The notes below the pieces were generated by a model that saw only the letters and a program-made list of their open reading frames with translations, had not been told where the DNA came from and ran no database searches. A stretch of DNA of 32,000 nt. It comes from Candidatus Saccharimonadota bacterium (GTDB lineage: Archaea; Micrarchaeota; Micrarchaeia; Micrarchaeales; Micrarchaeaceae). Position 1 is the first letter of the stretch, and the number at the start of each line of letters is the position of its first letter. The stretch spans positions 1 through 32,000 of the forward strand of contig OY969114.1 of the NCBI GenBank assembly GCA_963698035.1, read 5' to 3'. Below are positions 1,070 through 16,506 of this stretch, piece after piece. The translations under genes were made by a program, and so were the position numbers.

Positions 1070-1093
1070 TTCTCATAGCCCGGAACACTAGAA

Positions 1094-1767: not shown

Positions 1768-1799
1768 TTAGATATACTTAGTTTTTCTTCAATTGTTTT

Positions 1800-1894: not shown

Positions 1895-1922
1895 AAAACA
1901 ATTGAAGAAAAACTAAGTATAT

Positions 1923-2599: not shown

Positions 2600-2623
2600 T
2601 TCTAGTGTTCCGGGCTATGAGAA

Positions 2624-2812
2624 TTATTTTCTAAGGCTGGCCATGAGATCGGGATTGTCCCGCTTAAATTTCTTGGCCTCCTCGTTGGCCAGATACACCA
2701 GATAGGCTATGACAGCGGCCGATGTTGCAACCATAGACGCAGCCAGGGCAGGATCTGTTGTAGCCCTCAGTTGACCACCTAATCTTCCGCGTTTAAAAAC
2801 AGTCGATGGCAT
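2624..2812 (-). CDS. Small membrane protein (62 aa), paralog of 881..1069
   Basis: Translation is identical to 881..1069. Confidence 0.6.
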   Translation of the reverse strand: MPSTVFKRGRLGGQLRATTDPALAASMVATSAAVIAYLVYLANEEAKKFKRDNPDLMASLRK

Positions 2813-2909
2813 ATTACCCCCAAATATACTCTTCGCTATATGATATTTAATACTATCATTAGTGGAAATACAGGAGGTGTCCCATATCTAAAAGAATTGA
2901 AGAAAACTA
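2813..2909 (-). promoter_or_regulatory. Cassette junction module; begins with the TAG stop codon of the HAD gene
   Basis: Minus strand reads TAG TTTTCTTCAATTCTTTTAG atat GGGACACCTCCTGTATTTCCAC ... TATTAAATAT. Confidence 0.7.
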
Positions 2910-3644
2910 TACGAATCTTAGCAGGTCCCTGAGATCTGATATCTCGGCTATGGTGCGTAGGGTGTCACCAGCATGCTTGTAGCCAATTGTCGGATAGTAT
3001 AAAGAAGCTTCAGTGTCCCCGCCATCGCTAACGAATAGGATATTGCCGCTTTCTATCCTCCATCTTGCTGCTATAGTATCTAGCACTATCTTTTTGTTGA
3101 GATCTCTTTGGTTTTCCCAAGGCTGGCCAGCGCCATTCGGATACGCGTATGTGCTAACATATTGACCTTGCGAATCAAAAACCGTAGTTCTGCCATAAAC
3201 ATTCATGGGAACTGGGCCGACGGAGATAACCGGCCTTAAAAATGCCCGGGGGTGAATTCTATTCGCAACAACTCTTGCGTATATGGTGGGAGAAAACGTG
3301 GCTATGTCAAGACCTACGCCTTCGGCATTCAGCCTCTCGACCACCTCAGATGCATGGTCCTCTAGCGGGGCCGTGTTTGCGGCGCTAACAAAGTCGGAAC
3401 GGCATAGCCCTACATCTTTCGCCGCAGATTCAAGGAAGCCCAGTGACTCCTGAAGACTTATTTTACCTCTTCTGAAAAGAGGGTATACCTCAGGAATGTT
3501 GTGTATTCTTTTCATGGATGACCAAGACGATTTCTCTTTGATTAAAACTCCGTCAAGATCAAATACCACTCTTTTTACATCGGCTTGGCCTACTACCCTC
3601 CGTTCTCTTTCCTGCGCATAGCTCAACATAATCATGATGGACAT
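2907..3644 (-). CDS. HAD-superfamily hydrolase/phosphatase (intact copy)
   Basis: Contains HAD motif I (VVFDLDGVL) and a C-terminal acidic motif (FVSDGGDTE). The TATA box lies only ~9 nt from the first ATG, so the true start may be M4 or M6 (3635 or 3629). Confidence 0.7.
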   Translation of the reverse strand: MSIMIMLSYAQERERRVVGQADVKRVVFDLDGVLIKEKSSWSSMKRIHNIPEVYPLFRRGKISLQESLGFLESAAKDVGLCRSDFVSAANTAPLEDHASEVVERLNAEGVGLDIATFSPTIYARVVANRIHPRAFLRPVISVGPVPMNVYGRTTVFDSQGQYVSTYAYPNGAGQPWENQRDLNKKIVLDTIAARWRIESGNILFVSDGGDTEASLYYPTIGYKHAGDTLRTIAEISDLRDLLRFV

Positions 3645-3724
3645 TTCCAGATATTTATACCTATCCTGGGCGTTTGTGGAAATGCGGGGGTGGCCTTTTT
3701 GCTAAAGGAATTGAAGAAAAACTA
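3645..3724 (-). promoter_or_regulatory. Cassette junction module; begins with the TAG stop of 3722..4630
   Basis: Minus strand reads TAG TTTTTCTTCAATTCCTTTAG caaaa AGGCCACCCCCGCATTTCCAC aaacgcccaggatag GTATAAATATCTGG. Confidence 0.7.
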
Positions 3725-4630
3725 AGAAAGCTTTGATCGTGTCCTTCTTTCATTTGCATACGTTTGTTCAAAAATCGACCTTGCTTCTTGAAGGGTTTGC
3801 GCCTTTATTGCAGCTGGAAAGTGGAACCTCAAAAGGGAAAGTTTCCCAACATCATCTAAGCTTCCGCGCGCTGCCTGTCTTATAGCATCCTTATTAAGTA
3901 CGTCCAGAGGTGTCAACGAGCCACGTACTTCTGCATTAAAACCAAGTCGGGTGAGCTCATTTTCGAGATATTGCGCATGGCCAGCGCCTACTATCACAAC
4001 AACGCAGTGACTTTGTCCTGTCTTGCTTGCAACCGCTGCTATGTTGTCCCTCATCGCAGGCTCCCTTATAAGGTCGGCTTCGCCGAGAAGTCTTGCCTCT
4101 GTCATGCAACCTTGCAGTGCTTCATTAAATGAAGTAGTAGTCCGCAGCGTTTTTATCGCGGTTCTTTTCTCAATATACCTGCTTCTTATCCTTTCGTCAG
4201 TAATGTCGGCGTCTATTGGAATAATTTCAATTCCGGCAGCGCTTAGCTTGATCAATAATTCCATTAATGTTTTGTAATACCATCGAAGTTCTGGTCTTGT
4301 CATATTATTTACGTGCGCCTGGAGCTCCTCTTCTGTGATCTTTGGCATTGCTGCATAAAATGCACGTTTATTACTTGAGCTTTCAAAGCATACGCTTGTA
4401 ATCTCATACTCTTTAGATAGCGATAAGATGTCTGCGTATAAGGCAACAAGGCCTCCGGCACCCTCATTGCCGTGCCTGTCGGGGAATATCACTATTCTAG
4501 GTGCAGCTACCCTTACTAATCCCTTGATACCGGGTTCATCCCTCTTAGGAATCGGAATGGGCTTTGCGCCAATTTCACTAACTAAAGCCGTTCTTACAGC
4601 CGGGCCTCGATCTATTGTTAGATCAGCCAT
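3722..4630 (-). CDS. Tiki/TraB/ChaN-superfamily-like protein (302 aa)
   Basis: N-terminal FPDRHGNE and C-terminal VVVIVGAGHAQY resemble the two His-containing motifs of this superfamily. Recognised by eye only. Confidence 0.4.
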   Translation of the reverse strand: MADLTIDRGPAVRTALVSEIGAKPIPIPKRDEPGIKGLVRVAAPRIVIFPDRHGNEGAGGLVALYADILSLSKEYEITSVCFESSSNKRAFYAAMPKITEEELQAHVNNMTRPELRWYYKTLMELLIKLSAAGIEIIPIDADITDERIRSRYIEKRTAIKTLRTTTSFNEALQGCMTEARLLGEADLIREPAMRDNIAAVASKTGQSHCVVVIVGAGHAQYLENELTRLGFNAEVRGSLTPLDVLNKDAIRQAARGSLDDVGKLSLLRFHFPAAIKAQTLQEARSIFEQTYANERRTRSKLS

Positions 4631-4682
4631 ATCTTCACATTATACTGCGGGACTTCAGATATTTACGCATTTTTCTGCTATT

Positions 4683-5108
4683 CTAATCTCTTAATCTCAA
4701 ACGTCTGAACAAATCGATAGTCTCACCATAAGATAGATGCTCTGGCACGCTCTCCATCTTTGTTAACCCTATTTCTGACAATTCGTATACTTCCTTGCCC
4801 AGCTTCAATGCGTGTATGATTTCCGCGCCCATCCCTGCTAAGACAAATCCTTGAAATCGTGTGTAAACCAACAAACTACACCTTTCGATAATGCCCAAAT
4901 AAAAACCCATATCCCTTATTCCATAGTCTTTTACTGTTGCTGGATTGATTATTGCATAGTCTGGAAAGTGCTGTGCTATGATCTGCACTTGCGCTTTTTC
5001 TTCCTTTGTGCCGTATACCGGTTGTGCGTGCGCGAAATAGACCGTCTTCTCAGCGTTTGCCGGAAGCAGCTTGGCTGCTGCTTCATCCCATAGGCTCGGT
5101 CTTTTCAC
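4683..5108 (-). CDS. Nucleoside 2-deoxyribosyltransferase-like (DUF4406-like) protein, GTG start
   Basis: Pattern is VYFAHAQP ... IIERCSLLVY ... AGMGAEIIHALKLGKEVY, as in NDT-like Rossmann proteins. The start codon is uncertain. Confidence 0.35.
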   Translation of the reverse strand: MKRPSLWDEAAAKLLPANAEKTVYFAHAQPVYGTKEEKAQVQIIAQHFPDYAIINPATVKDYGIRDMGFYLGIIERCSLLVYTRFQGFVLAGMGAEIIHALKLGKEVYELSEIGLTKMESVPEHLSYGETIDLFRRLRLRD

Positions 5109-5173
5109 GTATATAGCGCCTCCAGTTACAGCAGTTAAACCTTTATTCGTATTATTGCCCCCTTTCCGAACGC

Positions 5174-5584
5174 TTACCTTACCAGCTTTCCGGCTTCGGA
5201 AGCAGCACTACCGCCTGGCTGCATTTTACTCAACCGATTCGCATACTCATCTTCAAAAAGCTCTTTCCACTCCTTTCTGCGCTGCATACCCTCCTCTGTC
5301 ACATACCAGCAGGGCTCACCGAGATCCGAAACTGTCAATGGCGCCTTAAGTTCTACTGCCAGCAATCTCTCATTTAACATTTCGTCGAAGCGGACAGAGA
5401 GCTTATGGAGGTTATTAAAAAACCTTTGGCCGCTAGATAGGCCCAAAGAGGCCGCGGCACCCAATATTATCTGTGTCTTATCGCTCAGCTCGCGCAAAAT
5501 CATCAGGTCTGTTATGAGCAATCCCAATAATTCTTGCTCTGAGAGCCTCCGTGCTGGTTTAGGAACTGTTGCGCTTCCCTGCAT
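5174..5584 (-). CDS. Hypothetical protein (136 aa)
   Basis: ORF is preceded by a full junction module with a TATA box. Confidence 0.5.
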   Translation of the reverse strand: MQGSATVPKPARRLSEQELLGLLITDLMILRELSDKTQIILGAAASLGLSSGQRFFNNLHKLSVRFDEMLNERLLAVELKAPLTVSDLGEPCWYVTEEGMQRRKEWKELFEDEYANRLSKMQPGGSAASEAGKLVR

Positions 5585-5680
5585 ATTGCCACAAAAATAT
5601 TCTGTTTGCCCAAATATTTAATATTATCATTTGTGGGAAGCAGAAGTGTCCCTTTAATGAAAGAATTGAAGAGAAACTAA
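5585..5680 (-). promoter_or_regulatory. Cassette junction module
   Basis: Minus strand reads TTAGTTTCTCTTCAATTCTTTC attaa AGGGACACTTCTGCTTCCCAC aaatgataa TATTAAATATTTGGG. No same-strand gene lies upstream of it. Confidence 0.7.
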
Positions 5681-5740
5681 TCGCCTCCTATCCTGTACAA
5701 GTTGCTTAAATACTTTTATCTTGCATTACCTCTGATCTGC

Positions 5741-6316
5741 ATGGAGCTTAGAACAAAAAGATTGGTATTAAGGCGGCCTAGGAAGAATGACCTACCCAAT
5801 CTAGTTAAAAACATAAGCAACATTCGGGTGTCAAAATGGTTGCTTACTGTTCCTTACCCCTATACTATTAAAGATGCACGATGGTACCTGAATCACAGTG
5901 CAAAGAAGTGGGGTGCTAGAAAGAAGACGGGATACGCATTTTTTATAGCCTTGAAAAGCAACAGGCATGTAATTGGTGGATGTGGTATAGATGGGATCAA
6001 CAAAAGTCAGGGTACCGCAGAGGTTGGTTACTGGCTCGGTGAAAAATATTGGCGGAGAGGATACGGAAGCGAAGCTCTTGATGCTATGTTAAAGTTTACT
6101 TTCAACAGCCTAAAATTGAGGAGAGTGTCGGCGCCTATATTTGCTGGTAATCCAAGCTCGGGTAAATTATTGGAGAAATACGGATTCAAAAAAGAGGGAT
6201 TGAAAAGAAAATCTGCCGTGTGCAAAGCCAATGGTAAAATAAGGGACGAGGTTGTTTACGGATTGCTTAAAGAGGAGTGGAAAGCTGACAAGAGAAAAAG
6301 GGATTTATTCTCTTGA
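5741..6316 (+). CDS. GNAT family N-acetyltransferase (RimJ/RimL-like)
   Basis: Contains MELRTKRLVLRRP, GYWLGEKYWRRGYGSEA and GNPSSGKLLEKYGFKKEG. A TATA-like GCTTAAATAC lies ~27 nt upstream of the ATG at 5741. The tracked ORF starts at the TTG at 5702. Confidence 0.8.
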   Translation: MELRTKRLVLRRPRKNDLPNLVKNISNIRVSKWLLTVPYPYTIKDARWYLNHSAKKWGARKKTGYAFFIALKSNRHVIGGCGIDGINKSQGTAEVGYWLGEKYWRRGYGSEALDAMLKFTFNSLKLRRVSAPIFAGNPSSGKLLEKYGFKKEGLKRKSAVCKANGKIRDEVVYGLLKEEWKADKRKRDLFS

Positions 6317-6601
6317 CAAAAGCCTGTACACTTTTATTTGTGTTCCGTAGATGTCCTTGTAGATGCTGTCTTGTATTTTTTCTTGAACAAAGCCGTCCGC
6401 TGCAAGCCTTGGCAAAAGCTTTTCAAGCACGTGTTTCGCTTCTTGATCGTCCATCCCTACATTTATGGAGCACATCGCACGCACAATCTCATGGGAATTT
6501 TTCCACCTTTCAGATAATGCGTTTGGTATCAGGTTCTTATTTTCTAGATCTGAGCCTATGTATGGTCTAGAAGCAACTGCCGTGGGCATATTTTCACTCA
6601 A
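6305..6601 (-). CDS. Hypothetical small protein (98 aa), possible winged-helix fold
   Basis: ORF lies 6 nt downstream of 6608..6970. Its 3' end overlaps the convergent GNAT gene by 12 nt. Confidence 0.4.
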   Translation of the reverse strand: MSENMPTAVASRPYIGSDLENKNLIPNALSERWKNSHEIVRAMCSINVGMDDQEAKHVLEKLLPRLAADGFVQEKIQDSIYKDIYGTQIKVYRLLSRE

Positions 6602-6607
6602 TAATAA

Positions 6608-6970
6608 TTACGGGTTATCCAGTTCGGAACCTATGGCCCTGAGTAATTTTGTGCACGCGGTCTCGGTTTCTGCTGGATACGTAAAACGCGAGGAAAGAAA
6701 TTCATGCACTGCACTCTCGGTTGCCGGCGTTGATTTGAGCTCTGCGGAGAGCATTTCTCCGGTGTGACTTATATCCTCAATAATACTTATTCTTCCATCA
6801 GACAATACGCCAATCGTCAAATCGAACGGTCTTTCTGCACCGGACTGAATTTCTGCGGTCTTTGGAGTTATGCGTACAATAGCAGCGTTGCGATCTGCGT
6901 GCGTGTCAATGCGCAGCTCTACTCCTGGAGTTATTACGGTTCGGCAAGCTGTTACCATTATATCACACAT
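6608..6970 (-). CDS. Hypothetical protein (120 aa)
   Basis: ORF has an upstream TATA (CCAGATATTTAAAGC at 6985-6999 on the plus strand). Confidence 0.45.
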   Translation of the reverse strand: MCDIMVTACRTVITPGVELRIDTHADRNAAIVRITPKTAEIQSGAERPFDLTIGVLSDGRISIIEDISHTGEMLSAELKSTPATESAVHEFLSSRFTYPAETETACTKLLRAIGSELDNP

Positions 6971-7047
6971 AATATAGCGTATTTCCAGATATTTAAAGCC
7001 TATGAATTACAGCAAAGTGGGGGTGTTTTATTATGCTTCTGTACCTT
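6971..7047 (-). promoter_or_regulatory. Partial junction module (G-string box and TATA only, no CTTCAATTC box)
   Basis: Plus strand 7010-7028 reads acagcaaaGTGGGGGTGtt. TTTAAATATCTGG lies upstream of the ATG at 6970. Confidence 0.5.
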
Positions 7048-7536
7048 TTAGACTAGTGTTCTTCGGACCTTCCCTTTGCAAATAGTACCGTTGTGACCGA
7101 TATCATGCAAAGTGTATTGTAGAATATACTCGAAGACCGGAGGCAAAGCGAAACTTGGCACTTCGCACTCCATTTCAAAAGCTTTGGTTTTACAATGGTT
7201 TATGCCATTAACATCAAATCTTATACATTTGTTTAATATCGCTTCAAAAGAAGTTTGTAGCTCCTCCGTTTTATCTGGCATACTGCGTGCTTCCCACGTT
7301 GAGTATGCTTTTTCCAGAAAAGGCATAACTTGCTGTAGCTGCAATCTTGCAATAACTTTCCTCTCCTCAACATCCGCTGCCATTCTCTTATAATCAAGTA
7401 CATTTGTTAGTGTTGATGACTCTGATGGTAAACTTCTGGTTCCCGTTTTCGTCACCATTTTATCGTATTTTAATATTTTAACTGTCTGCAACTGGGATCC
7501 ATCGTGCATTAACTTTTCGTGTGTTAGCGACGACAA
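7048..7536 (-). CDS. Hypothetical protein; true start possibly 7458
   Basis: The ORF overlaps the upstream gene by 59 nt. An internal Met (MVTKTG) at 7458 removes the overlap. Confidence 0.4.
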   Translation of the reverse strand: MSSLTHEKLMHDGSQLQTVKILKYDKMVTKTGTRSLPSESSTLTNVLDYKRMAADVEERKVIARLQLQQVMPFLEKAYSTWEARSMPDKTEELQTSFEAILNKCIRFDVNGINHCKTKAFEMECEVPSFALPPVFEYILQYTLHDIGHNGTICKGKVRRTLV

Positions 7537-7978
7537 ACCTTGCCGTTATTTCGTTTTCACCTGTAACTGAATAGTTTCCTATGGCAATGCTGTCTTTAAA
7601 AGCGAATATCGAGGTATGCATTTTCCTTTTGCCCTCAAAATATTTTCTGATCTCTTTCATTACCCCTTTCAGCTCTCCTTTGTCTGTAAGATCTACGCCG
7701 CTGATGGTGAATGCCATAGTGCCGCCGTGTGTAACCCATTCCTTCCGGCTATTGCTGGAGACCTCATGACCATAATGCATTGTGTATACTTTTGATACAT
7801 GTAGTTTTATATCGCTGTGATCGCTGTTAAAATTCAGCGCGCTTTGCGCAAACCTTTCAGAAATTTCGTCGGCCTGCCGCTTGATACTGTCTGCACTGTA
7901 CTCTACTAGTCCGGGTACGCTCCTTAAGAGCTTCCGTGTCGTAGGGCTTGCCTCTAAATTTTGAGAGATGGTTGACAT
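7478..7978 (-). CDS. Hypothetical protein (166 aa)
   Basis: ORF is preceded by a short junction module and an AT-rich TATA region. Confidence 0.45.
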   Translation of the reverse strand: MSTISQNLEASPTTRKLLRSVPGLVEYSADSIKRQADEISERFAQSALNFNSDHSDIKLHVSKVYTMHYGHEVSSNSRKEWVTHGGTMAFTISGVDLTDKGELKGVMKEIRKYFEGKRKMHTSIFAFKDSIAIGNYSVTGENEITARFVVANTRKVNARWIPVADS

Positions 7979-8037
7979 TTTATCACATTTTAATATTTTT
8001 ACTAGCAGAATTGAAGAAAACTAATATTTTAGTTTTA
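7979..8037 (-). promoter_or_regulatory. Short junction module (T-rich CTTCAATTC box fused directly to the TATA region)
   Basis: Minus strand reads TAA aactaaaata TTAGTTTTCTTCAATTCTGCTAG TAAAAATATTAAAAT gtgataaaATG. Confidence 0.6.
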
Positions 8038-8937
8038 TTGTCTCCTAAAGATATCACCCAGGAGCCTATTCCCAAGTTCGTCATTCCTTCTCAGCGCGCC
8101 TTCCACCAGCTCCAACTCCAGCCCTTCTATCATCTGCTTAATCTCACCTTGCTCTTCGACGCCGCCGAAGGTGATCGTGCCCTTAATCATCTCTTCCATG
8201 AGCCCCGAGAAGTGATTCAAGCTGCTTTTTAGAGTAGTGAAGTCTTTTGCATACTTCGATAGTATTGTGCCCACCTTGTGCATGTCCGGCGTGGGGACAA
8301 GAAGTGTCACAAGCCCTGCCACGTCTATAGGATCCTTGACCCTCGTGCTGTCCAAGGATAGCACAAGCTTCATTGCAAGCAGGGATTCTGTGTCGACCAT
8401 ACGGATCCATTGTTTCGAATATGGAATGACTCCCCTTACGCTATGCTCCGATAATACATCATCTGGCGGCATCAAGAGCCTGTCGCGCCTTTCTACATAT
8501 ACATCGATGTCTACCTCAGTTCCACTTGTGTCTTTGGCCTTTATCTCGTGCTTTTTAAGGATTGGATTGTAATTTATACCCCAACCGTTCTCGTTCGCCA
8601 TTCCCTGAAGTAGGGTCCAGCCGCCCTCTGAAACGGCAACATCTATGTCATGAGACTTCCTCAACCCGCACTTTGCAAATACCGCCCATCCTCCTATGAC
8701 CGCGATCATGGGCATATTGCCGCTGTCAGCCTCGCGCACCTCTTGCCTATTGAAGATCTGAGACATTATTTCTAGGCAGGCGCGTTCTTTTGCGGCATCC
8801 GACGTAACGGCCTGTGAAGCCTTGGCCTTGAGCGCGTTGCCTATCTCCCCTTTTGCGCTTCTAGGCATAATACCAAAAGCAGGCTCTGGGCTTCTGGCTG
8901 TTGTATTTGTTATATCCACCACAATTGGCATAATCAT
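8035..8937 (-). CDS. Nucleotidyltransferase-fold protein, AbiEii/DUF1814-like
   Basis: IGGWAVFAKCGLRKSHDIDVAV fits the GG..(R)xSxDxD minimal NTase motif. ESLLAMKLVLSLDSTRVKDPIDVAGL resembles the AbiEii C-terminal K/D motif. Confidence 0.45.
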   Translation of the reverse strand: MIMPIVVDITNTTARSPEPAFGIMPRSAKGEIGNALKAKASQAVTSDAAKERACLEIMSQIFNRQEVREADSGNMPMIAVIGGWAVFAKCGLRKSHDIDVAVSEGGWTLLQGMANENGWGINYNPILKKHEIKAKDTSGTEVDIDVYVERRDRLLMPPDDVLSEHSVRGVIPYSKQWIRMVDTESLLAMKLVLSLDSTRVKDPIDVAGLVTLLVPTPDMHKVGTILSKYAKDFTTLKSSLNHFSGLMEEMIKGTITFGGVEEQGEIKQMIEGLELELVEGALRRNDELGNRLLGDIFRRQ

Positions 8938-9119
8938 CTACTAATTTAGCGCTGGGGATGATATTTATGCTTATCGAGAGGGTGCGCTACCCGTCGCAGT
9001 TACGGCCCACTCAAGCCATCCCTTACCGCTTCAGTTACCATTTCCTAGCTTATGATGATACTCTCAGCCGTACTCTATTTACCAAAATATTTATGCCTGT
9101 CTAAGAGCATTTGCGGAAA

Positions 9120-9392
9120 CTAATCTTGCAATTTTGCAAGATACTCCTCCCCCTCGCGGGTGATTAGATAGGTCCTTGGAGGATTTTGGCGGGTATACTG
9201 TTCAGGAAATATCTGGTCTGATTCCTTGACGAACCCTCTTCCAACCAACGACTTAAGCGTTTTGCCTAATTCATCCTCTGCTGTGTTTGTAACGTGCCTT
9301 ATGTACTCCGGTGTCTCGCCTGGACTACCGCGCAAGCATTCAAGCACGCGTTCTTCAATAATTCTCGTAGGCATTCTCGTTGTTTGCATCAT
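9120..9392 (-). CDS. Small winged-helix DNA-binding protein (90 aa)
   Basis: ERVLECLRGSPGETPEYIRHVTNTAEDELGKTLKSLVGRGFV has a wHTH-like pattern. TATA box ATATTTATGC is at 9417-9431. Confidence 0.45.
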   Translation of the reverse strand: MMQTTRMPTRIIEERVLECLRGSPGETPEYIRHVTNTAEDELGKTLKSLVGRGFVKESDQIFPEQYTRQNPPRTYLITREGEEYLAKLQD

Positions 9393-9608
9393 ATTATCGC
9401 AAAATCGCTGTGTTTTACGTAATATTTATGCTTATCTTTCATCACAAAAGAATCAAAGAAAAAGTATAATTTTACTAAAGACCCCTATCTGTTAATTTTT
9501 TTCAAACTGAACTTTAATGAATCTTTAGTTAACAATAGTAAGCACCTTAAGATACTTAAGGCTTTGCTATGCACGGGCTTTGCACTTAAAATATGACTTG
9601 CACTTATT

Positions 9609-10253
9609 TTAATCACGGGCCTCTACATGTTGCAGTCCTTCTTGGCTGGGCGCTCCTGTAGACAGGATTCCTGTCGGTCTTCTCTGTTGCTTGAGTCTCC
9701 TTCTTTCATCCTTGCATCTTTCCTTTTGGTATCTAATAGTATCTTTCTCCGATCTAAAGATGCCGCCTTCGTATACACCTCCTGCGGCTTTAAAGACTCC
9801 GTTAAATGTTGAACCATCAGAGCGAGTGACATTTCCGTCCATCTCAATTGCACCATCTACAGTTGTATTAGTAATCACCTTCTGCCCATACGCACTGAGG
9901 CCATGTAACTTCGACTTGACAACCAATACTCCATTAGAAAGGCTGCCTCCATAAACTTCCGACCTCCCTAATATAACTGAGTCTCGATTTTGATTTACAT
10001 CAGACCAAACAAGAGATTCAGAGCCCGGTGTTACTTCATACCATCCTCCACCAGTAAGATTTCTCCTAAGCTGGTGCTCTGAACCGTTAGATTTAAGAAC
10101 AAATGTGGCTACCTTTTCTTCAATAGGTATTCTGGCTACCAGACCGGGTAATTCAAGAGCGGACTGAATGCTACCAATCTGTACGGCTATGGCCCTTTCT
10201 TGTGTTGTAAGGGAGGCGATTGTTAGACAAGTTTGTTGTGTTTTGAATGCCAT
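9609..10253 (-). CDS. Hypothetical protein (214 aa), Gly-rich beta-type repeats and a basic C-terminus
   Basis: ORF with its own TATA box. No family recognised. Confidence 0.45.
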   Translation of the reverse strand: MAFKTQQTCLTIASLTTQERAIAVQIGSIQSALELPGLVARIPIEEKVATFVLKSNGSEHQLRRNLTGGGWYEVTPGSESLVWSDVNQNRDSVILGRSEVYGGSLSNGVLVVKSKLHGLSAYGQKVITNTTVDGAIEMDGNVTRSDGSTFNGVFKAAGGVYEGGIFRSEKDTIRYQKERCKDERRRLKQQRRPTGILSTGAPSQEGLQHVEARD

Positions 10254-10296
10254 ATAATCATAAGTAGCTGCGATTTCCCAGATATTTATGCTTTTC
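10254..10296 (-). promoter_or_regulatory. Promoter half of a junction module split by the transposon
   Basis: CCCAGATATTTATGC at 10277-10291 (plus strand) lies ~25-38 nt upstream of the ATG at 10253. The transposon target duplication starts 6 nt beyond the TATA box. Confidence 0.6.
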
Positions 10297-10305
10297 CTGA
10301 AGCCT
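10297..10305. repeat. Target-site duplication, left copy (CTGAAGCCT)
   Basis: An identical 9-mer occurs at 14581-14589, immediately outside the two terminal inverted repeats. Confidence 0.75.
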
Positions 10306-10369
10306 AGCTTTGCTAATAAACCTTGCTAATTAATTTACTTTGTTAGCAGATTTAATTCTTTATTAGCAG
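10306..10369. repeat. Left terminal inverted repeat plus subterminal TTTATTAGCA-type repeats
   Basis: Copies are TGCTAATAAA (10311-10320), TGCTAATTAA (10324-10333), TTTGTTAGCA (10339-10348) and TTTATTAGCA (10359-10368). Confidence 0.7.
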
Positions 10370-10370
10370 A

Positions 10371-11612
10371 CTATTCTATTTTACCATCTAAGAGGTCTTG
10401 AACTGTCCTCAAAACTATCTCTAAGCCGTCTTGATTCTTAACTCTGGCTACCTCTTCTTTAGCACCACTACCAAAAGAAAAAGCAACTACATATCCTTTC
10501 TTTCTATTCATACGACGCATAGCCGTCTCAAAGTTATCTATCACATTTCTTCCAACATCAGGACTTTGCTTGACTTGTATAGGATAGCCACCAGTAACTT
10601 GTGGGGTAAGCCCATCAATTCCCATATCACCAGATTTTGTTCTGCTTATAGTCCCTAAGAACTTATCAACAACAACCCAGTTCTGAAACTCGAATGGTTC
10701 AAGCTTTTTGACATAGTTTATATCGACGTCGCCTTTTACCATCTGTGCGGTTATGTGATATTCTTTCTTCAATCGCTTAGCCATCAGTTTACACGCAGTT
10801 GGGCTTATGTCAATTCCTATCCACTTTCTACCATTTTTTTGTGCAGAAGATATAGCAGTTCCGCAACCACAGAAAGGGTCTAAGACCAATTCGTCTTTAT
10901 TAGAGCTTGCACTTATTATCCTATCCAAAAGTGCTACTGGTTTTTGTGTAGGATAACCCATGTATTCTCCAGTATTATTTATTGTCTGAAACGAAGGAAT
11001 GTCAGTCCATACTGTAGACATCGCTTTTCCTTTAGATTTATCCAAATAAACTATTCTTTTCTTTCCGTCTTTATCAAAATAGATTTTGTATTTCCTACCT
11101 TCGTCATCAGTTTTGTCATATCTTTTTATTGTCCTTTGATCTAATTCTCCATGTTCTTTATTGAAAGTATATTTGCTTGATTTAGAATAGAAAAGAATGG
11201 TGTCATGACCTCTAATCCATTTATTTGCTTGTGCTTTGAATCCAGACGAAGTTTCGTTTGACCATATGATTTCATTCTTAAAGTTCTTTTCACCAAATAT
11301 CTTATCCATTAAAATTCTAAGGTGTGCATTTGCATGATAATCGCAGTGCAAATAAATAGAGCCAGTTTCTTTCAGCACTCTCCAACATTCTCTTAATCGT
11401 GGCTCCATCCACGTTATATAAAATTCAATATCACCTTCCCATCTATCTTTAAAACTACGTATTTCTTCTTTATCATGCCAAATAACCTCGTAGTTTTTGT
11501 TAGTAAAGAAGGGAGGGTCAAGATAAATCAGGTCAATTTTATTATCTGGGAACTTGCTCATAATCTCCAGATTATCTCCCTCATAAATAGCATCAATTTC
11601 CATAGCTGACAT
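10371..11612 (-). CDS. DNA methyltransferase (beta-class, DPPF) fused to a C-terminal Mrr-like PD-(D/E)xK nuclease domain
   Basis: Motif IV (IYLDPPFF) lies near the N-terminus and motif I (DPFCGCGT) is later. The C-terminal GDMGIDG..YPIQVKQ resembles the Mrr catalytic core (GIDG...QxK). Confidence 0.75.
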   Translation of the reverse strand: MSAMEIDAIYEGDNLEIMSKFPDNKIDLIYLDPPFFTNKNYEVIWHDKEEIRSFKDRWEGDIEFYITWMEPRLRECWRVLKETGSIYLHCDYHANAHLRILMDKIFGEKNFKNEIIWSNETSSGFKAQANKWIRGHDTILFYSKSSKYTFNKEHGELDQRTIKRYDKTDDEGRKYKIYFDKDGKKRIVYLDKSKGKAMSTVWTDIPSFQTINNTGEYMGYPTQKPVALLDRIISASSNKDELVLDPFCGCGTAISSAQKNGRKWIGIDISPTACKLMAKRLKKEYHITAQMVKGDVDINYVKKLEPFEFQNWVVVDKFLGTISRTKSGDMGIDGLTPQVTGGYPIQVKQSPDVGRNVIDNFETAMRRMNRKKGYVVAFSFGSGAKEEVARVKNQDGLEIVLRTVQDLLDGKIE

Positions 11613-11620
11613 TATATCAT

Positions 11621-12853
11621 CTAAGCTTTAAAAACCTTATCAGAAAGCTCTGGAGTTATCCCAAGCTCATATATCGCACTTATCAAAACTGTTATGTTAT
11701 ATGCTATCAGTTTGCACATTAGCTCGTTGGTCTGCGATACAAAGTTTTTGTTCTTTAGACCATCGCCGAGCTTGGTCTTGATAGCCATATTCGTTGTCTC
11801 TATGTTAGACCTTTTGTGATAATGTTCCATAAATTCTTCTTGTTTGTATTGGAACAAATGGAACATATTACGCCACAAGCGAGACTTACCTCTTGGGTTT
11901 CCTACTGCGTTTGATTTGAAGGGAATGTAAGGCGTTATGCCCATCTCTTCCGCAAGAACGTAGTTAGCTCTTGAGCTATACGCTTTGTCCGCACTAATCT
12001 CTTGCACATTAAATCCATTCTTTGAAGTTGTTTGAAGCAACGAAGGAAAAGATAGCGTATCGTTTTCGTGTTCTGATGTTATCTCAACTGATGTTATCAC
12101 ATTCGTTTTAGTTCCTACGCACAAGTGAGCTTTTAACCAGTGATGCCCTTTGTTCGTTCCATATTTGTTATGGCAATACTCTCCGAACTTCGTGGTTCTA
12201 AATCCAGTGCTATCTATTGCGAACTGGGTCTCAACACTCTTTAAAGGCAACGCTGTAATCTCCAGCAGTTCCTTTAGCAGTGGCGTTATCTCTGGGTCGT
12301 TGAGCAATATGTTTATCACGTTATAATTAGGTGCTTTGCTTATCTGCTCCTTGCCTTGAGCGTTCCTATAAAGCGAATATGCACGTCTGCTTGATAGCTG
12401 GGAATAGACCTTTTGTATTGCACAGAATAAGCCCTCTCTCAAAGGCACTCTTGGTCTTCCTATCACTTGCACTGGCTCATTTATGTTTTGAACCAAGTCT
12501 CTTAGAAGCTCATCAAAGAGCTTTACCTCTTCGTTCTGTGCCTTAGTGTAAGCAGACCAGTTTTGAGGATAGGTTATCCTCTTGGTCGCTGTTATCGTAG
12601 TGCTACCATCTTTATTGACCTGTTTTTCTACTGTGATTTCTACTGCGAATATATGCTTACATTTGACCCCTCTGGTCGCATAATCTCGGCACGTGCATCT
12701 TGACCCATCAATCCTTAGTTCTACGCTATAAGATTGTCTTGGATTAGTCTGCGATGGCACTTGCCATATACCGTTCCTATTGACTATCTGTTTTGTCTGG
12801 GCTATTGCATAGCCCTTTTCTTTTCTCTTTTTTACCAGTTCTACTTGTTGCAT
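11621..12853 (-). CDS. DDE transposase, IS4/IS5 superfamily, with an N-terminal SWIM zinc finger
   Basis: SWIM motif is CTCRDYATRGVKCKH. DDE elements are FAIDSTGF, ISADKAYSS and the Y-x2-R-x3-E-x6-K signature (YHKRSNIETTNMAIK). The stop lies 8 nt from the methyltransferase start. Confidence 0.85.
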   Translation of the reverse strand: MQQVELVKKRKEKGYAIAQTKQIVNRNGIWQVPSQTNPRQSYSVELRIDGSRCTCRDYATRGVKCKHIFAVEITVEKQVNKDGSTTITATKRITYPQNWSAYTKAQNEEVKLFDELLRDLVQNINEPVQVIGRPRVPLREGLFCAIQKVYSQLSSRRAYSLYRNAQGKEQISKAPNYNVINILLNDPEITPLLKELLEITALPLKSVETQFAIDSTGFRTTKFGEYCHNKYGTNKGHHWLKAHLCVGTKTNVITSVEITSEHENDTLSFPSLLQTTSKNGFNVQEISADKAYSSRANYVLAEEMGITPYIPFKSNAVGNPRGKSRLWRNMFHLFQYKQEEFMEHYHKRSNIETTNMAIKTKLGDGLKNKNFVSQTNELMCKLIAYNITVLISAIYELGITPELSDKVFKA

Positions 12854-12869
12854 ATCAGCACCATATTGT

Positions 12870-12958
12870 TAGGCACCTAACTATATACTATTAGGCACCT
12901 ACAAGTATATATATCTATCGGTATGCTACCGCAAGGTTTATAAAGGAATAGGCACCTA
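12870..12958. promoter_or_regulatory. Three TAGGCACCTA boxes in the divergent promoter region between the transposase and the DUF488 operon
   Basis: Exact 10-mers occur at 12870-12879, 12892-12901 and 12949-12958, interleaved with TATA-like tracts (CTATATAC, GTATATATAT, TTTATAAAG). Confidence 0.65.
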
Positions 12959-12966
12959 ATAGTATT

Positions 12967-13764
12967 ATGAAGCTTCAAAAACGCTTTTCTCGTAAGGTAA
13001 ATGACAAGGAATACGTCAAGTGGATATTGACAATACCACCAGAGGACATAGAAAAAGTTGGCTGGAAAGAAGGTCAAGATGTTAATTCTGTTGTAGTGGC
13101 GGATGGATTACTCATAAAGAAAAGTGAATCTATCAATTACGTTGATTTCAAGAACCGCTTATATGCTCTCCTAAATGAAGGTTTTGGCTTTACTTGGAAC
13201 GAAATAAAAAGACGGTTGAACATAGAGCAAACCATTCCAAACAATAAATGGGTAAATGACCTTCAAAAAGACATTCAATTAAGGCGAAGAAAGATAGGAG
13301 CCACTACCTATTGGTATTTGGAAAAAGGTGGAACGCCGATTTATACGATTGGTTATGAAGGCAAAAGCGTAGAGGAGCTTATAGAAATACTCAAAAGATA
13401 TGGAATAAAACGCTTAGTTGATGTAAGGGAATTAGCACTTAGTCGTAAAAATGGTTTTTCAAAATCCGTATTGAAAGATAAGCTAAATGAAAATCATATA
13501 GGGTATCAGAATATATCCGAGCTTGGTTCTCCGAGAGTTTTGAGACATCAGCTATGGAACGACAAAAACTATGACGAGTTCTTCAAGAAATATTCAGAAT
13601 GGATTGATTCTATCAACTCAAAAACCGCTTTAGAAAACCTTGAAGGATTAGCACACATCAGAGCTACCGCAATAATGTGTTTTGAAAAGGATGTAGAAAA
13701 ATGCCATCGAAGTATAATCAAGAAAAGGCTAATTCAAGATGGCTTCAAGGTCGTTGATTTATGA
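12967..13764 (+). CDS. AbrB/SpoVT-like domain, winged-helix-like linker and DUF488 domain fusion protein
   Basis: The N-terminus ILTIPPEDIEKVGWKEGQDVNSVVVADGLLIKK matches the AbrB swapped-hairpin pattern. The C-terminal half (IYTIGYEGKS...VDVR...CFEKDVEKCHRSII) matches DUF488. Confidence 0.65.
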   Translation: MKLQKRFSRKVNDKEYVKWILTIPPEDIEKVGWKEGQDVNSVVVADGLLIKKSESINYVDFKNRLYALLNEGFGFTWNEIKRRLNIEQTIPNNKWVNDLQKDIQLRRRKIGATTYWYLEKGGTPIYTIGYEGKSVEELIEILKRYGIKRLVDVRELALSRKNGFSKSVLKDKLNENHIGYQNISELGSPRVLRHQLWNDKNYDEFFKKYSEWIDSINSKTALENLEGLAHIRATAIMCFEKDVEKCHRSIIKKRLIQDGFKVVDL

Positions 13765-14525
13765 CATCCACAAAAAAGCGAGTTATAATAGTAGCGAAAA
13801 CTTATCCTAATCTTAGCGAGAAATACGAGGAAACTGTATGCGTTGCTGGGATAGATATGGAGACTGGCGACTGGATTAGGATGTTTCCAATAGCCTTTAG
13901 AAAATTGCGTCCTTCACAGAAGTTTAGGAAATTTGATATTATTGAAGTGGAAACGGAACGATATAACGACAAATATACGAGAGTTGAAAATTATAGGGTT
14001 AGGGATAAAAGTATCAAAATCATAGAGCACAAATCAAATCCAGATTGGGAATCAAGAAAGGACATATTATTGCCTAAGTTAATTGATTCAGTAGAGGAAC
14101 TTGAAACTTCAAGAGACGCATCTCATAAGACATTAGGTTTGATAAAGCCGAGAGAAATCGTAGATTTTTATAAGAAAAATATAGATGAATGTAGAGACTG
14201 GGAAAAAGAATTGATTGAAGGGACACAAAGAACCCTTTTTGGAAATTATAGGACTCCATTAAAGAAAATCCCTTACTGGATGGGATATAATTTTCTCTGT
14301 AATGGTGCTAACTGCGGAGGGCATAATATGATGTGCGAAGATTGGGAATTGATGGAGCTATTTAGAAGTATGAAAAATAGGTTTGGTAATGAAGTGGGTT
14401 TTAGTAAGGTTAGAGATAAGTTCTTTGAATGGATGCAACAAAGGGATGTCTATTTCGTGCTTGGAACAGAAAGCAGATGGAATAGGTTTTTGATAGTCTC
14501 GGTGTTTTATCCGCCGAGAGAGTGA
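13761..14525 (+). CDS. Uncharacterised 254-aa protein with a Cys/His cluster (CNGANCGGHNMMCEDWE)
   Basis: ATGA start/stop overlap with the DUF488 gene indicates translational coupling. No family recognised. Confidence 0.55.
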   Translation: MTSTKKRVIIVAKTYPNLSEKYEETVCVAGIDMETGDWIRMFPIAFRKLRPSQKFRKFDIIEVETERYNDKYTRVENYRVRDKSIKIIEHKSNPDWESRKDILLPKLIDSVEELETSRDASHKTLGLIKPREIVDFYKKNIDECRDWEKELIEGTQRTLFGNYRTPLKKIPYWMGYNFLCNGANCGGHNMMCEDWELMELFRSMKNRFGNEVGFSKVRDKFFEWMQQRDVYFVLGTESRWNRFLIVSVFYPPRE

Positions 14526-14526
14526 G

Positions 14527-14580
14527 TTTATTAGCAACAATCAGACTTTATTAGCAGGAAGGTAGTTTATTAGCAAAGCT
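14527..14580. repeat. Right subterminal repeats (3 x TTTATTAGCA, 19-20 nt spacing) ending in the right terminal inverted repeat
   Basis: Exact 10-mers occur at 14527-14536, 14547-14556 and 14566-14575. Confidence 0.8.
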
Positions 14581-14589
14581 CTGAAGCCT
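14581..14589. repeat. Target-site duplication, right copy (CTGAAGCCT)
   Basis: Identical to 10297-10305. Similarity continues for 9 more nt (GGCTTTGCT versus AGCTTTGCT), because the flank resembles the element's own terminus. Confidence 0.75.
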
Positions 14590-14633
14590 GGCTTTGCTCA
14601 GAAAGTTCGTTCTGCCTCCTTGAAGAAAAACTA
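14590..14633 (-). promoter_or_regulatory. Terminator-side half of the junction module split by the transposon
   Basis: Minus strand reads TAG TTTTTCTTCAAGGAGGCAGAACGAACTTTCTGAGCAAAGCC, starting at the stop codon of 14631..15119. Confidence 0.6.
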
Positions 14634-15119
14634 AACCCTTCTTATTTTAGCAAGATCGCCTTTTTCCTCTAATACCAAATCCGTAACTACGGCGGGCACC
14701 TCTCTTACGTCTTTAACAATGTGTGCTACTGAAACCCTTCTATTACCATCAACGTCAACATAACATTCGGGCGCCTTTCTATCTGCCTTTCTGATCCTGA
14801 GCAAACATATTGGAGCGACCGGGTCGGGTGCGATGACCCTTAAGTCCATTGCGACCTCAAAAACATTCCACCACCTTCGATCTCTGCCTTTTGGCGTAGG
14901 ACTCCAGTTTTCATAATACTTGTCGGCATTGTCTAGTCGTGTGCCCACTATATCTGCCACCGGAACGGGTTGTTCTTTTGGATTTGCCCTTACACGACGA
15001 ACTTCGGGGTTGCTTTCTGAGAATTCGGGATGGTCCTTCTCTATTGCTCTAATAAGCTCTACCATAATCTCATCTATAATGATTATATTCTCGGGCGTCA
15101 GTCTTTGTTTCTTAACCAT
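14631..15119 (-). CDS. Hypothetical protein with a possible ParB/Srx-like domain
   Basis: PICLLRIRK...YVDVDGNRRVSVAHIV...VPAVV resembles the ParB N-terminal DGxxR(R) motif. Weak, by-eye call. Confidence 0.35.
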   Translation of the reverse strand: MVKKQRLTPENIIIIDEIMVELIRAIEKDHPEFSESNPEVRRVRANPKEQPVPVADIVGTRLDNADKYYENWSPTPKGRDRRWWNVFEVAMDLRVIAPDPVAPICLLRIRKADRKAPECYVDVDGNRRVSVAHIVKDVREVPAVVTDLVLEEKGDLAKIRRV

Positions 15120-15436
15120 GAAGTAATGCCGGTCAGTGCCGCTCCAGCAATACCCCCAAACAAGAAGGCGGCTGCAGCCGCATTTTCAACGACAGATACA
15201 TGAAGGCCCAGTTCCCTGACCTCGTACGCTGCGTAAGCGAGCGACGCCAGTAGGCCGCCTTCCGCAAACCCCAATATCATACCGCCAAGAACTGTAGTGG
15301 CGCTGACCACGCCTCTTTCCGAGCCGCGGATACTCCCCCCTCTTAGATGGATTCCTGAAAGGGCATTTCTGAGTAATAAATCGGGTTTCTGTTCAACATC
15401 ATCTGCTTGCGTCTTAGTTGGAGACACGGTTACCAT
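15098..15436 (-). CDS. Small Gly/Ala-rich membrane protein (112 aa)
   Basis: Two hydrophobic Gly-zipper-like segments. TATA box CAGATATTTATGC is at 15463-15475. Confidence 0.5.
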   Translation of the reverse strand: MVTVSPTKTQADDVEQKPDLLLRNALSGIHLRGGSIRGSERGVVSATTVLGGMILGFAEGGLLASLAYAAYEVRELGLHVSVVENAAAAAFLFGGIAGAALTGITSWLRNKD

Positions 15437-15525
15437 AATACCACATATATGTTGTGGCGTTTCAGATATTTATGCATTTATTTTGGTCGCCTCAAAGCCA
15501 AGGAAAAGAGGGAATTAAAGGAATG

Positions 15526-15597
15526 TGGGCCCGCGGAGAATCGAACTCCGTATCTTCACGTTGTCAACGTGACGTCTTACCAATCGACTACGAGCCC
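15526..15597 (-). tRNA. tRNA-Val (anticodon GAC), no encoded CCA
   Basis: Hand-folded cloverleaf: GGGCTCG TA GTCG-ATTGGTA-AGAC G TCACG TTGACAA CGTGA AGATA CGGAG TTCGATT CTCCG CGGGCCC A (72 nt). Confidence 0.9.
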
Positions 15598-16506
15598 CTA
15601 GATCGTTATCTGCATGCCGTCGTAGGCGGCATCGCTGTTCTTGAATATGCCCCTCGCCTCCTTTATCAGCTCGTCGGGCTTCCTATACCTTGCGCTCATG
15701 TGGAACATTATGAGCCTCTTGACCTTCGCCTTTTTCGCTATGGTGGCTCCTTCAGCTGCGGTAGAGTGCAGCCTCTGCCTTGCAAGTTCCTTCAGCTTTT
15801 CCGAGTATGTGGTCTCGTGTATGAGAAGGTCGGCGTTCTTCGCCGCGTTTTCGGTCGCCTCCACCGGCCTGGTGTCCGTCGCATAGACGATCTTCCTTCC
15901 TTCCTGCTTCTGCGCGACCTTGCCCAGGCTTATGGTCCTGCCCTTCAGCTTTATGGTGCTCCCGTCATACAGCTTCGAGTACATCTCGCCCCGGATGCCA
16001 AGCTTCTTGCATTTCTCCTTGTCGAAATGGTACCTCTCGTCCTCCTGGAAGACGTACCCGAACGTTGGAACCGAATGCTTCAGCCTGAAGGCACTTACGG
16101 AGAAGCCCTTCCCCTTCATGATAGCGCCCGGCTTTACCGACTTTATCTCAATCTTGTAGCCTATGAGCGCCCTGTCGAAAGTCAGCAGCTGGTTTATCTT
16201 CTTTTCCTCCCCAGCAGGCACGTATATGCCCAATGAATCCATCCTCTTGTTGAGCGCGAGCGTCCTGACGAGCCCTGCTACGCCTATGATGTGATCGCCG
16301 TGCATGTGCGTCAGGAATATCCCCCTTATGCGGTTGGGGTTTATCCCGTACTTCATCAGCTGCCTCTGCGTTCCCTCCCCGCAGTCAAAAAGGTAGACCC
16401 CTCCTTCATACTCTAGGGCAACGCTGGGGAGGTTCCTCTCCTTCGTCGGCGTGGATCCGGCGGTTCCCAGAAAAGTTATCTTTATCGGCAGCGGCATCTC
16501 AATCAA
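15598..16506 (-). CDS. rnz: Ribonuclease Z (tRNA 3' endonuclease)
   Basis: Metallo-beta-lactamase motif LTHMHGDHIIG, about 300 aa, and an N-terminal ITFLGTAGSTPT typical of RNase Z. Confidence 0.9.
   Translation of the reverse strand: MIEMPLPIKITFLGTAGSTPTKERNLPSVALEYEGGVYLFDCGEGTQRQLMKYGINPNRIRGIFLTHMHGDHIIGVAGLVRTLALNKRMDSLGIYVPAGEEKKINQLLTFDRALIGYKIEIKSVKPGAIMKGKGFSVSAFRLKHSVPTFGYVFQEDERYHFDKEKCKKLGIRGEMYSKLYDGSTIKLKGRTISLGKVAQKQEGRKIVYATDTRPVEATENAAKNADLLIHETTYSEKLKELARQRLHSTAAEGATIAKKAKVKRLIMFHMSARYRKPDELIKEARGIFKNSDAAYDGMQITI

Follow-up and report, generated by a model that had tools for sequence, protein, structure and literature searches.

A probable IS903-type unit transposon with candidate defence cargo at the edge of a core promoter in a Micrarchaeota-like genome

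How does a mobile element several genes long come to lie directly against a host promoter while leaving it intact, and how many of its genes belong to it? The question is raised by a 32,000-nt stretch of contig OY969114.1 (hereafter the window, meaning the whole of the DNA that was analysed), in which four genes at 10306-14580 are enclosed by matching inverted ends next to the promoter of the gene at 9609-10253. A first-pass annotation, made from the sequence alone, took this segment for an IS4-type transposon with passenger genes. Our analysis retains the passenger genes and replaces the family. With high confidence, we describe the segment as an intact, non-composite unit transposon of the IS903 type, probably recently active and inserted at a promoter edge in a DPANN-type (Micrarchaeota-like) host. 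It has what a unit transposon, or insertion sequence (IS) with passenger genes, comprises: one transposase gene together with cargo, one pair of terminal inverted repeats (TIRs), one target-site duplication (TSD), and occurrence of the unit at several sites. As the first-pass annotation had noted, most of the element is cargo: the transposase gene takes up 1.23 kb of 4.275 kb, and about 3 kb is passenger genes.

The ends and their surroundings are organised as follows; the core is positions 7-15 of the TIR, and BRE is the transcription factor B (TFB) recognition element.

10283-10296, minus strand: core promoter of the host gene 9609-10253, GAAAAGC-ATAAATAT, BRE-like then TATA-like, just outside the left TSD copy and facing away from the element
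10297-10305, no strand: left TSD copy, CTGAAGCCT
10306-10368, plus strand: transposase-downstream end, with the 16-bp TIR, one adjacent direct core copy and two inverted core copies
14527-14580, minus strand: transposase-upstream end, with the TIR (14565-14580) and two further direct core copies at 14547 and 14527, 19-20 bp apart
14581-14589, no strand: right TSD copy, CTGAAGCCT
14590-14605, plus strand: family-type terminus, probably a solo end, GGCTTTGCTCAGAAAG, abutting the TSD and outside the element itself

The TIR AGCTTTGCTAATAAAC at 10306-10321 pairs perfectly with its counterpart at 14565-14580 (inverted repeat I10, 100% complementary), and the two delimit an element of 4275 bp (10306-14580). 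Exact CTGAAGCCT occurs twice in the window, both times flanking the element. Neither kind of terminal sequence is common by chance: the TIR 16-mer with at most three mismatches was observed three times against 0.39 expected, a number reached by 0 of 100 shuffles, and TTTATTAGCA with at most one mismatch nine times against 3.07 expected, a count that no shuffle reached. Seven of these nine near-copies lie within 63 bp of the two element ends. Three exact direct copies stand at the right end (14527, 14547 and 14566, spaced by 20 and 19 bp), and four at the left, in both orientations (10311 and 10324 on the minus strand; 10339 and 10359, 20 bp apart, on the plus strand). The perfect TIRs, the 9-bp direct repeat and the subterminal repeats of the first-pass annotation are all present as it described them, and the repeats, whose layout recurs throughout the family, remain plausible transposase binding sites.

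Removal of the element and one TSD copy rebuilds an intergenic spacer of 93 nt (10254-10296, 9 bp and 14590-14630), the length given in the first-pass annotation. The spacer starts after the stop codon of gene 14631-15119 (TAG, then TTTTTCTTCAA, on the minus strand), and the TATA-like ATAAATAT lies 7 nt from the TSD and about 30 nt before the ATG at 10253. The insertion had been placed correctly, just upstream of the TATA box of gene 9609-10253. Both junctions recur base for base in a Logan assembly (L001) that matches window positions 5436-15581 at 100% identity over 10,146 bp; L001 was assembled separately, but may share its sample with the window. Another contig (L002; JBLFKZ010158361.1 of GCA_052916005.1) holds a 99.9% identical internal fragment equivalent to 10621-13298, in which a 1-nt gap splits the methyltransferase frame into 264 aa and 54 aa; either this copy is decaying or the gap is a sequencing error.

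The element comprises two divergent gene pairs, and all four genes are intact.

10371-11612, minus strand: cargo gene 1, an N6/N4 DNA methyltransferase of 413 aa, fused at its C-terminus to a PD-(D/E)xK nuclease domain of the Mrr type (Pfam N6_N4_Mtase 8.4e-50, Mrr_cat 7.3e-6; PADLOC MTase_II 1e-74)
11621-12853, minus strand: transposase, 410 aa, a SWIM zinc finger on an IS903-like DDE core (Pfam DDE_Tnp_1 5.9e-24, SWIM 7.8e-5; NCBIfam IS5_2 136.6 bits; hhalign to IS903B)
12854-12966, no strand: divergent control region between the transposase and DUF488 genes, with TATA-like boxes and three exact copies of TAGGCACCTA (12870, 12892, 12949), a putative TTAG-N4-CTAA palindromic operator
12967-13764, plus strand: cargo gene 2, a 265-aa protein with an AbrB/MazE-like and winged-helix N-terminal part and a C-terminal DUF488 domain (Pfam DUF488 5.5e-29, weak MazE_antitoxin 0.0066; PADLOC PDC-M19A, PDLC04505, 1.4e-35)
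13761-14525, plus strand: cargo gene 3, a 254-aa DuOB (dual OB-fold) protein (Pfam DuOB 1.8e-7; PADLOC PDC-M19B, PDLC04508, 1.4e-58)

Comparison of related loci shows that the four-gene unit moves as a whole. One Micrarchaeales genome (L004) has these four genes in identical order among unrelated neighbours, with a transposase 84% identical to that of the window, ends GGCTTTGCTAATAAAG and AGCTTTGCTAATAAAC, and a 9-bp TSD of their own, CAGAAGCGA. An 86%-identical copy (L003) has yet another flank. A sister element (L005/L007; transposase 79% identical, TSD GTGGTTAAG) places the same end design around restriction-modification cargo, an HNH/MTaX1 protein and an N6/N4 methylase. Furthermore, one 4154-bp element was found at two different sites (L099 and L101) in copies 95.7% identical. 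The first-pass annotation had left it to a wider search whether further copies exist and how their cargo compares; they do exist, at other sites, and carry either the same genes or others between the same ends.

To delimit the family, which counts more than 4500 homologues, 160 loci encoding relatives of the transposase were fetched and searched mechanically for a 16-bp inverted repeat with at most three mismatches flanked by an exact 9-bp direct repeat. This yielded 70 independent insertions of 2479-7338 bp with A/GGCTTTG ends, every one of them (70/70) with cargo. The end upstream of the transposase gene carries direct core copies at positions 25 and 45 and the downstream end inverted copies at positions 34 and 54, at a density of 13.0 per kb in subterminal against 0.28 per kb in interior DNA, and the window element has exactly this layout. 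The asymmetry between the two ends shows that they are functionally distinct. The core itself differs from one element to another (GCTAATAAA, GCTCATAAA, GCTCCTAAA, GCACGTAAA and others), and the copies within one element change together, which is what co-evolving transposase binding sites would look like.

The nearest transposases are encoded in Candidatus Micrarchaeales/Micrarchaeota genomes. Relatives are also encoded on 38 IMG/VR contigs (L171-L208), where 17 loci, which amount to 16 distinct insertions because L186 and L187 hold one and the same element, contain delimited elements of 3.1-6.7 kb that share these ends and the 9-bp TSD. Viral or proviral DNA thus also carries the family, or is binned together with it.

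The transposase, as judged from its sequence, is an IS903-like core of the IS5 family preceded by a SWIM zinc-finger region of about 97 residues. It is encoded in a single open reading frame (ORF) without frameshift, with catalytic residues D214, D289 and E352 and a Y345-R348-E352-K359 signature whose four residues are invariant in 32 homologue sequences. When a 32-homologue profile was compared by hhalign with the transposase of IS903B, residues 98-386 aligned with residues 25-308, essentially the whole of that protein (probability 97.4%, E 9.8e-12), with the DSTG, ADxAY and Y..R...E......K (RSxxE) motifs in register. The homologous DDE triads are thus aligned, and tblastn against plasmids likewise matched the transposases of IS903B and ISPpa3 (4e-10 to 1e-9). 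The ends agree with this placement. IS903B, a 1057-bp element from a Klebsiella plasmid, terminates in GGCTTTGTTGAATAAATC, the family in GGCTTTG and the window element in AGCTTTG, and the TSD is 9 bp in all 70 insertions, as in the IS903 group and in contrast to the 2-6 bp of other IS5 groups (PMC3281130 Table 2). In a fold search, an AlphaFold (AF2) model of the enzyme (pLDDT 82) resembled retroviral integrases and the transposases of ISCth4 and Tn5, as a DDE enzyme should. The transposase, DUF488 and DuOB proteins found no matches when solved structures were searched by sequence.

The cargo falls into two modules. The methyltransferase gene lies 8 nt downstream of the transposase gene, with which it is probably co-transcribed. 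Its Mrr-type domain carries a GIDG...QVK motif, read from the sequence, in which D...QxK appears intact. Compared with type II restriction-modification systems, the protein has a strong N6_N4_Mtase match and, in the fused Mrr_cat domain (E 7.3e-6), a single candidate nuclease; the fusion is likely to be either a single-chain restriction-modification enzyme or a self-protecting methylase. On the other side, the DuOB gene start overlaps the DUF488 gene stop by 4 nt (ATGA). The two genes match the adjacent M19A (DUF488) and M19B (DuOB) components of PDC-M19, and the pair is thus a candidate for a defence system. For the two modules, a role in restriction-modification or defence may be proposed.

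Six elements carry the DUF488-DuOB pair, which in each of them stands immediately upstream of the transposase gene and is divergent from it. Identities across these elements run from 55 to 64% for DUF488, 39 to 81% for DuOB and 53 to 84% for the transposase; the cargo tracks the transposase, so the pair has long been co-inherited and is no recent capture. The divergent layout of the control region is likewise shared with five related elements (L004, L011, L016, L017 and L029), and the centre of the putative operator, whose candidate word in the window is TTAGGCACCTAA, co-varies among the six: GGTGCC in the window, GGTATC in L004, L011 and L016, and GACGTC in L029. It is possible that the AbrB-like N-terminus of the DUF488 protein binds these operators. 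In some other elements stand-alone AbrB-like genes take the position of the DUF488 gene. The idea that one conserved small regulator accompanies the transposase was rejected, as the upstream small ORFs are heterogeneous (3/39 AbrB/MazE-like, the rest assorted helix-turn-helix or zinc-ribbon proteins). In the window and its homologues, the two TATA-like boxes of 12854-12966 sit amid palindromes, giving the appearance of a compact, autoregulated divergent promoter.

Across the family, cargo proteins with a length of 150 aa or more (146 proteins, 63 elements) were scanned with Pfam and PADLOC hidden Markov models, and DNA modification and restriction predominated: N6_Mtase 18, Eco57I 13, Methylase_S 8, N6_N4_Mtase 7, MmeI_Mtase 7, DUF488 6, NYN 4 and HSDR_N 4. 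Additional matches comprised Mrr_cat, C5 methylases, the restriction endonucleases NgoPII, MamI and HNH, and PADLOC models of types I, II and IIG.

Where these elements insert is the surprising feature of the family. Of 140 flanks read outward from the TSD, 38, 47 and 38 have an A/T hexamer that starts at offset 6, 7 and 8, respectively, where the background rate is 0.023 per position, and the outward consensus (G/A)AAA-SS-TTTAWATA corresponds to a BRE followed by a TATA box facing away from the element. In named archaeal genomes, 33 of 35 insertions have such a BRE/TATA on one side, compared with 23% of the intergenic candidate 9-mers of the same loci (p = 5e-19). The last TSD base is C or G in 35/40 cases, and the far side of the TSD shows no conservation. 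Consistent with a promoter, an ATG-initiated ORF of at least 100 aa starts 29-48 nt out on 18 of 41 promoter sides and on 10 of 69 other sides (p = 0.001); a looser version of this test, open to every start codon and to ORFs from 50 aa upward, failed to separate the two kinds of side. The window conforms to this rule, its minus strand reading GAAAAGC-ATAAATAT after the TSD with the ATG at 10253 about 30 nt on. The promoter motif GCATAAATATC occurs on the minus strand at 8960, 9086, 9421, 10281 and 15465, each time before a gene of the surrounding island. The flank of L004, TATTTATGCTTTT, resembles that of the window because both carry the promoter consensus; shared flanking genes were rejected as the cause, since tblastx found no homology outside the element. 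We regard promoter-edge targeting in archaea as real and not as mere survival, because a peak only 3 nt wide is more than the survival of harmless insertions alone can produce. Our best guess is that the cue is either the BRE-TATA DNA itself or the complex of TATA-binding protein (TBP) and TFB on it.

The rule may be different outside archaea. In named bacterial genomes, 0 of 8 sites lie beside TATA-like sequence, and the bacterial members keep the GGCTTTGC ends, the 9-bp TSD and the cargo. Three metagenome members (L128, L131 and L133) sit at G- or C-homopolymer 9-mers beside a shared GGAATCATCG motif, which hints at a different target rule.

The first-pass annotation had also noticed that the flank beyond the right TSD mimics the element's own terminus. 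That observation was right: the GGCTTTGCT flank is present at 14590, and GGCTTTGCTCAGAAAG there agrees in register with the L017 and L020 termini at 16/17 positions. Its reading as targeting of terminus-like sequence, or as part of a longer repeat, fits less well than a solo end of an earlier family member. Beyond the first 17 nt at 14590 nothing element-like was found, and the start of an intact older element was rejected, as there is no matching inverted end, no second CTGAAGCCT and no subterminal core copy. A terminus-like sequence abuts the TSD on the non-promoter side also at L017, L027, L110 and L021, and at L105 two complete elements stand in tandem, separated by a 13-nt spacer and two 9-bp TSDs. 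The sequence at 14590 is probably a remnant of an earlier insertion at the same promoter-defined site: if the promoter fixes the target 9-mer, a second insertion would fall between promoter and first terminus and duplicate the same 9 bp. Elsewhere in the window, two tandem family-type termini, GGCTTTGCTATGCACG and GGCTTTGCACTTAAAA, lie at 9560-9610, just downstream of the stop codon of gene 9609-10253, the second of them with a core copy, GCACTTATT, at position 25 like genuine transposase-upstream ends. Older family members appear to have left remnants in this island.

Several other explanations of the element and its position need to be weighed against this account. An IS4-family transposon of the IS10/IS50 kind, as the first-pass annotation proposed, would imply hairpin intermediates as in Tn5 and Tn10. 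The Pfam domain DDE_Tnp_1 is of IS4 type, the Tn5 transposase is among the best structural matches of the predicted model (TM-score 0.42-0.45), and the element shows the DDE motif without frameshift, the Y-(2)-R-(3)-E-(6)-K signature and a TSD within the IS4 range of about 7-13 bp. Signature and TSD do not discriminate, however, as IS903B shares the spacing and the IS903 group the 9 bp; the first-pass argument from TSD length is correct in that IS10 and IS50 likewise duplicate 9 bp (PMC2266710 Table 1), and fails in that 9 bp is equally diagnostic of the IS903 group. The family models point elsewhere, with 31.4 bits for NF033592 transpos_IS4_1 (cut-off 115) against 136.6 for NF033579 transpos_IS5_2, by far the best match, and the whole IS903B transposase aligns with residues 98-386. 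The 63 residues between the second D and the E leave no room for the large insertion domain of the Tn5 type; in Tn5, D188 to E326 spans 138 residues. Finally, the window element ends in AGCTTTGC and the 70 relatives in GGCTTTGC or AGCTTTGC, A/GGCTTTG termini that fit IS903B and none of the IS4 subgroup consensi (CAT, CA, CT, CW, YT, -AATR and others; PMC2266710 Table 1). We consider an IS4 affiliation very unlikely. Still less credible, in our judgement scarcely so, is that the four-gene unit is an accident, a single-gene IS among resident genes with outer repeats that are foreign or due to chance. The usual IS903-group element of about 1.05 kb with a single gene (PMC3281130), and the fact that no empty site was found in three collections, would speak for it. 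The transposase gene has no terminal repeats immediately around it, though, and the same gene order and ends recur with their own TSD in L004; none of the 70 delimited members is shorter than 2479 bp, and cargo identity follows transposase identity.

The position of the element can also be explained without promoter targeting, by a weak IS903-like flank preference (N9-TRAAW) combined with survival in the harmless intergenic DNA of compact archaeal genomes. IS903 indeed prefers WTTYA-N9-TRAAW (PMC2577343 Table 1), which resembles the RAAA beside the TSD, and all of the data are surviving natural insertions. Against this, the A/T hexamer starts within a 3-nt window instead of being spread through the spacer; the proportion with a TATA-like run at that distance is 94% among the observed insertions, and only 23% among intergenic candidate 9-mers and 18% among intergenic RAAA sites; the logo is one-sided and long where that of IS903 is palindromic and short; and second insertions re-use the same 9-mer beside an older terminus. 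Survival on these terms appears improbable to us. Direct attraction to terminus-like DNA, a form of inverted-repeat targeting reported for some IS families, would account for the terminus-like sequences abutting the TSD in the window, L017, L027, L110 and L021 and for the L105 tandem. In every such case the opposite flank has BRE/TATA at the canonical distance, however, and about 60 of the 70 insertions have the promoter and no terminus-like flank; the promoter rule alone predicts the old TSD copy as the new target. This is the weaker alternative, and we think it rather unlikely.

A number of observations weigh against the description of the element as a mobile, IS903-type, promoter-targeting carrier of defence genes. 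The best family model, IS5_2, falls 3.4 bits short of its cut-off (136.6 against 140), identity between the transposase and that of IS903B is only about 24%, and both termini in the window begin AGC where the typical IS903 start is GGC. The empty site, which the first-pass annotation had proposed as a test of the insertion and which should contain the junction TTTTCCTGAAGCCTGGCTTTGCTC, was not found: exact GCTTTTCCTGAAGCCTGGCTTTGCTCAG is absent from the viral, metagenome and genome collections searched, and the window holds no second copy of the element. The promoter association rests on surviving natural insertions and not on de novo events. As regards the cargo, gene calls in related loci are crude ORF calls, PDC-M19 is a candidate system of PADLOC only, and the literature searched contains no experimental report of its antiviral protection. 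The literature searched on DUF488/DuOB, PDC-M19, archaeal cargo transposons and promoter-targeting IS elements yielded no description of this group or of its promoter-edge targeting, and the group may already be in ISfinder.

We are now able to propose how the IS903-type element could work, by analogy with IS903. The transposase would bind the TIR and the phased subterminal core copies, which the zinc-finger region may serve to read, and would pair the two differently organised ends. Cut-and-paste transposition would then excise the whole 4.3-kb unit and insert it through a 9-bp staggered cut. In the window the insertion used a 9-bp target ending at the first base of the BRE/TATA core promoter that serves gene 9609-10253; this promoter is left intact and is cut off from everything upstream. 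Each cargo module would be under its own control, the methyltransferase-nuclease behind the transposase and the DUF488 and DuOB genes divergent from it, and the AbrB-like N-terminus of the DUF488 protein would probably control both promoters through the operator-studded region between them. The element would thereby gain a safe landing in a compact genome, and the host portable defence genes. A reading that goes further, and that we hold only tentatively, is that the family forms a large, apparently undescribed branch of IS903-like obligate carriers, mainly of restriction-modification and other defence genes, whose archaeal target is read through TBP/TFB on BRE-TATA, or through the DNA shape that they impose, with a 9-bp cut ending at the first BRE base.

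Comparison with known systems helps to define what is unusual here. With IS903 and IS903B the element shares a homologous DDE core over the whole IS903B protein, the Y-2-R-3-E-6-K spacing, termini that in the family start GGCTTTG and contain AATAAA, and a 9-bp TSD (PMC3281130). It departs from them in size and content (4275 bp and four genes rather than 1057 bp and one gene; a simple IS of the group has about 950-1150 bp and one ORF of about 307-322 aa, against four ORFs and a transposase of 410 aa), in the added N-terminal SWIM region of about 97 residues, in phased subterminal repeats laid out differently at each end, and in the one-sided target logo of its family as against the palindromic WTTYA-N9-TRAAW of IS903 (PMC2577343). 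Transporter IS elements such as the IS231 subgroup of IS4, which reach 5.4 kb (PMC2266710), also place extra genes with one IS-type transposase between one pair of TIRs. They belong to another transposase family, whereas here cargo is present in 70/70 members, consists mostly of DNA methylases and restriction components, and in the window element stands on both sides of the transposase gene. PADLOC PDC-M19 is matched strongly by two adjacent, overlapping genes, and differs in that the present pair is transposon-borne and its DUF488 protein has gained an AbrB-like/winged-helix N-terminus.

Tn7-like transposons with defence cargo were reportedly described by Benler and colleagues in 2021. With these and with Tn3-family unit transposons the element has in common the shuttling of defence genes and a 'safe' target site. 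Unlike them it has a single small DDE transposase and no TnsABCD-type or resolvase machinery, and unlike Tn7-like elements it targets a class of sites, core promoters, instead of one attachment site. The closest parallel to its target choice may be eukaryotic: the Ty3 retrotransposon is targeted by TFIIIB, other eukaryotic elements are likewise directed to promoters, and archaeal TBP and TFB are homologues of TBP and Brf1/TFIIB. The likeness is one of outcome only, a fixed, nucleotide-precise distance from a TBP-bound promoter; the enzyme class is another, and the family inserts upstream of the BRE, Ty3 at the transcription start.

The element lies in a region with the appearance of an acquired island. 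The G+C content of the element itself is 0.32-0.41, compared with about 0.42 for the 15 kb around it and about 0.55 for the rest of the window, where archaeal marker and housekeeping genes are found beside the island (GGGP synthase, archaeal RqcH, Trm5b and RNase Z). The low-G+C part, window positions 1-15450, ends 75 nt from a tRNA-Val(GAC) gene (15525-15597) and contains an AbiEii-like protein (weak match), an acetyltransferase and a winged-helix protein. A scan of 10 island ORFs revealed no integrase, no repeat of at least 12 nt links the tRNA-Val region 15481-15610 to positions 1-15400 as an attachment site would, and the flanking 214-aa and 162-aa proteins have no Pfam or NCBIfam matches and no relatives in viral contigs. 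At the start of the island, positions 21-3668 form a near-perfect palindrome, 96.8% identical to its own reverse complement over 3684 columns, with arms of about 1.8 kb that meet near 1845 and mirrored ORFs at 1094-1414 (plus strand) and 2279-2599 (minus strand). It lies outside the coverage of L001 and may be either a genuine foldback duplication or an artefact of assembly.

Transposons that carry passenger genes are familiar, and the superfamily of the present enzyme is known too. The novelty lies in an IS903-like, SWIM-bearing clade whose members are obligate carriers of cargo of the defence type, in how abundant this clade is among archaea, and in nucleotide-precise insertion at core promoters. 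In a 2019 survey of thaumarchaeal mobile elements, passenger-carrying transposons were among the classes not detected in archaea (PMC6563490); dozens are found here across Micrarchaeota, methanogens and other lineages. They offer a one-enzyme route for the horizontal spread of restriction-modification and candidate defence genes, including into the very small genomes of DPANN archaea. Among prokaryotic DDE transposons, insertion at the BRE/TATA edge would represent a novel mode of target selection and a natural 'safe-harbour' strategy. If the target is indeed read through TBP/TFB, the family would be a prokaryotic counterpart of Ty3-TFIIIB targeting, which would also explain why successive elements stack at the same 9-mer. 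The enzyme may provide a tool to tag or perturb archaeal promoters and a handle on how a transposase reads a promoter of the TBP/TFB type, and the co-varying end repeats and operators would supply ready specificity pairs for biochemistry.

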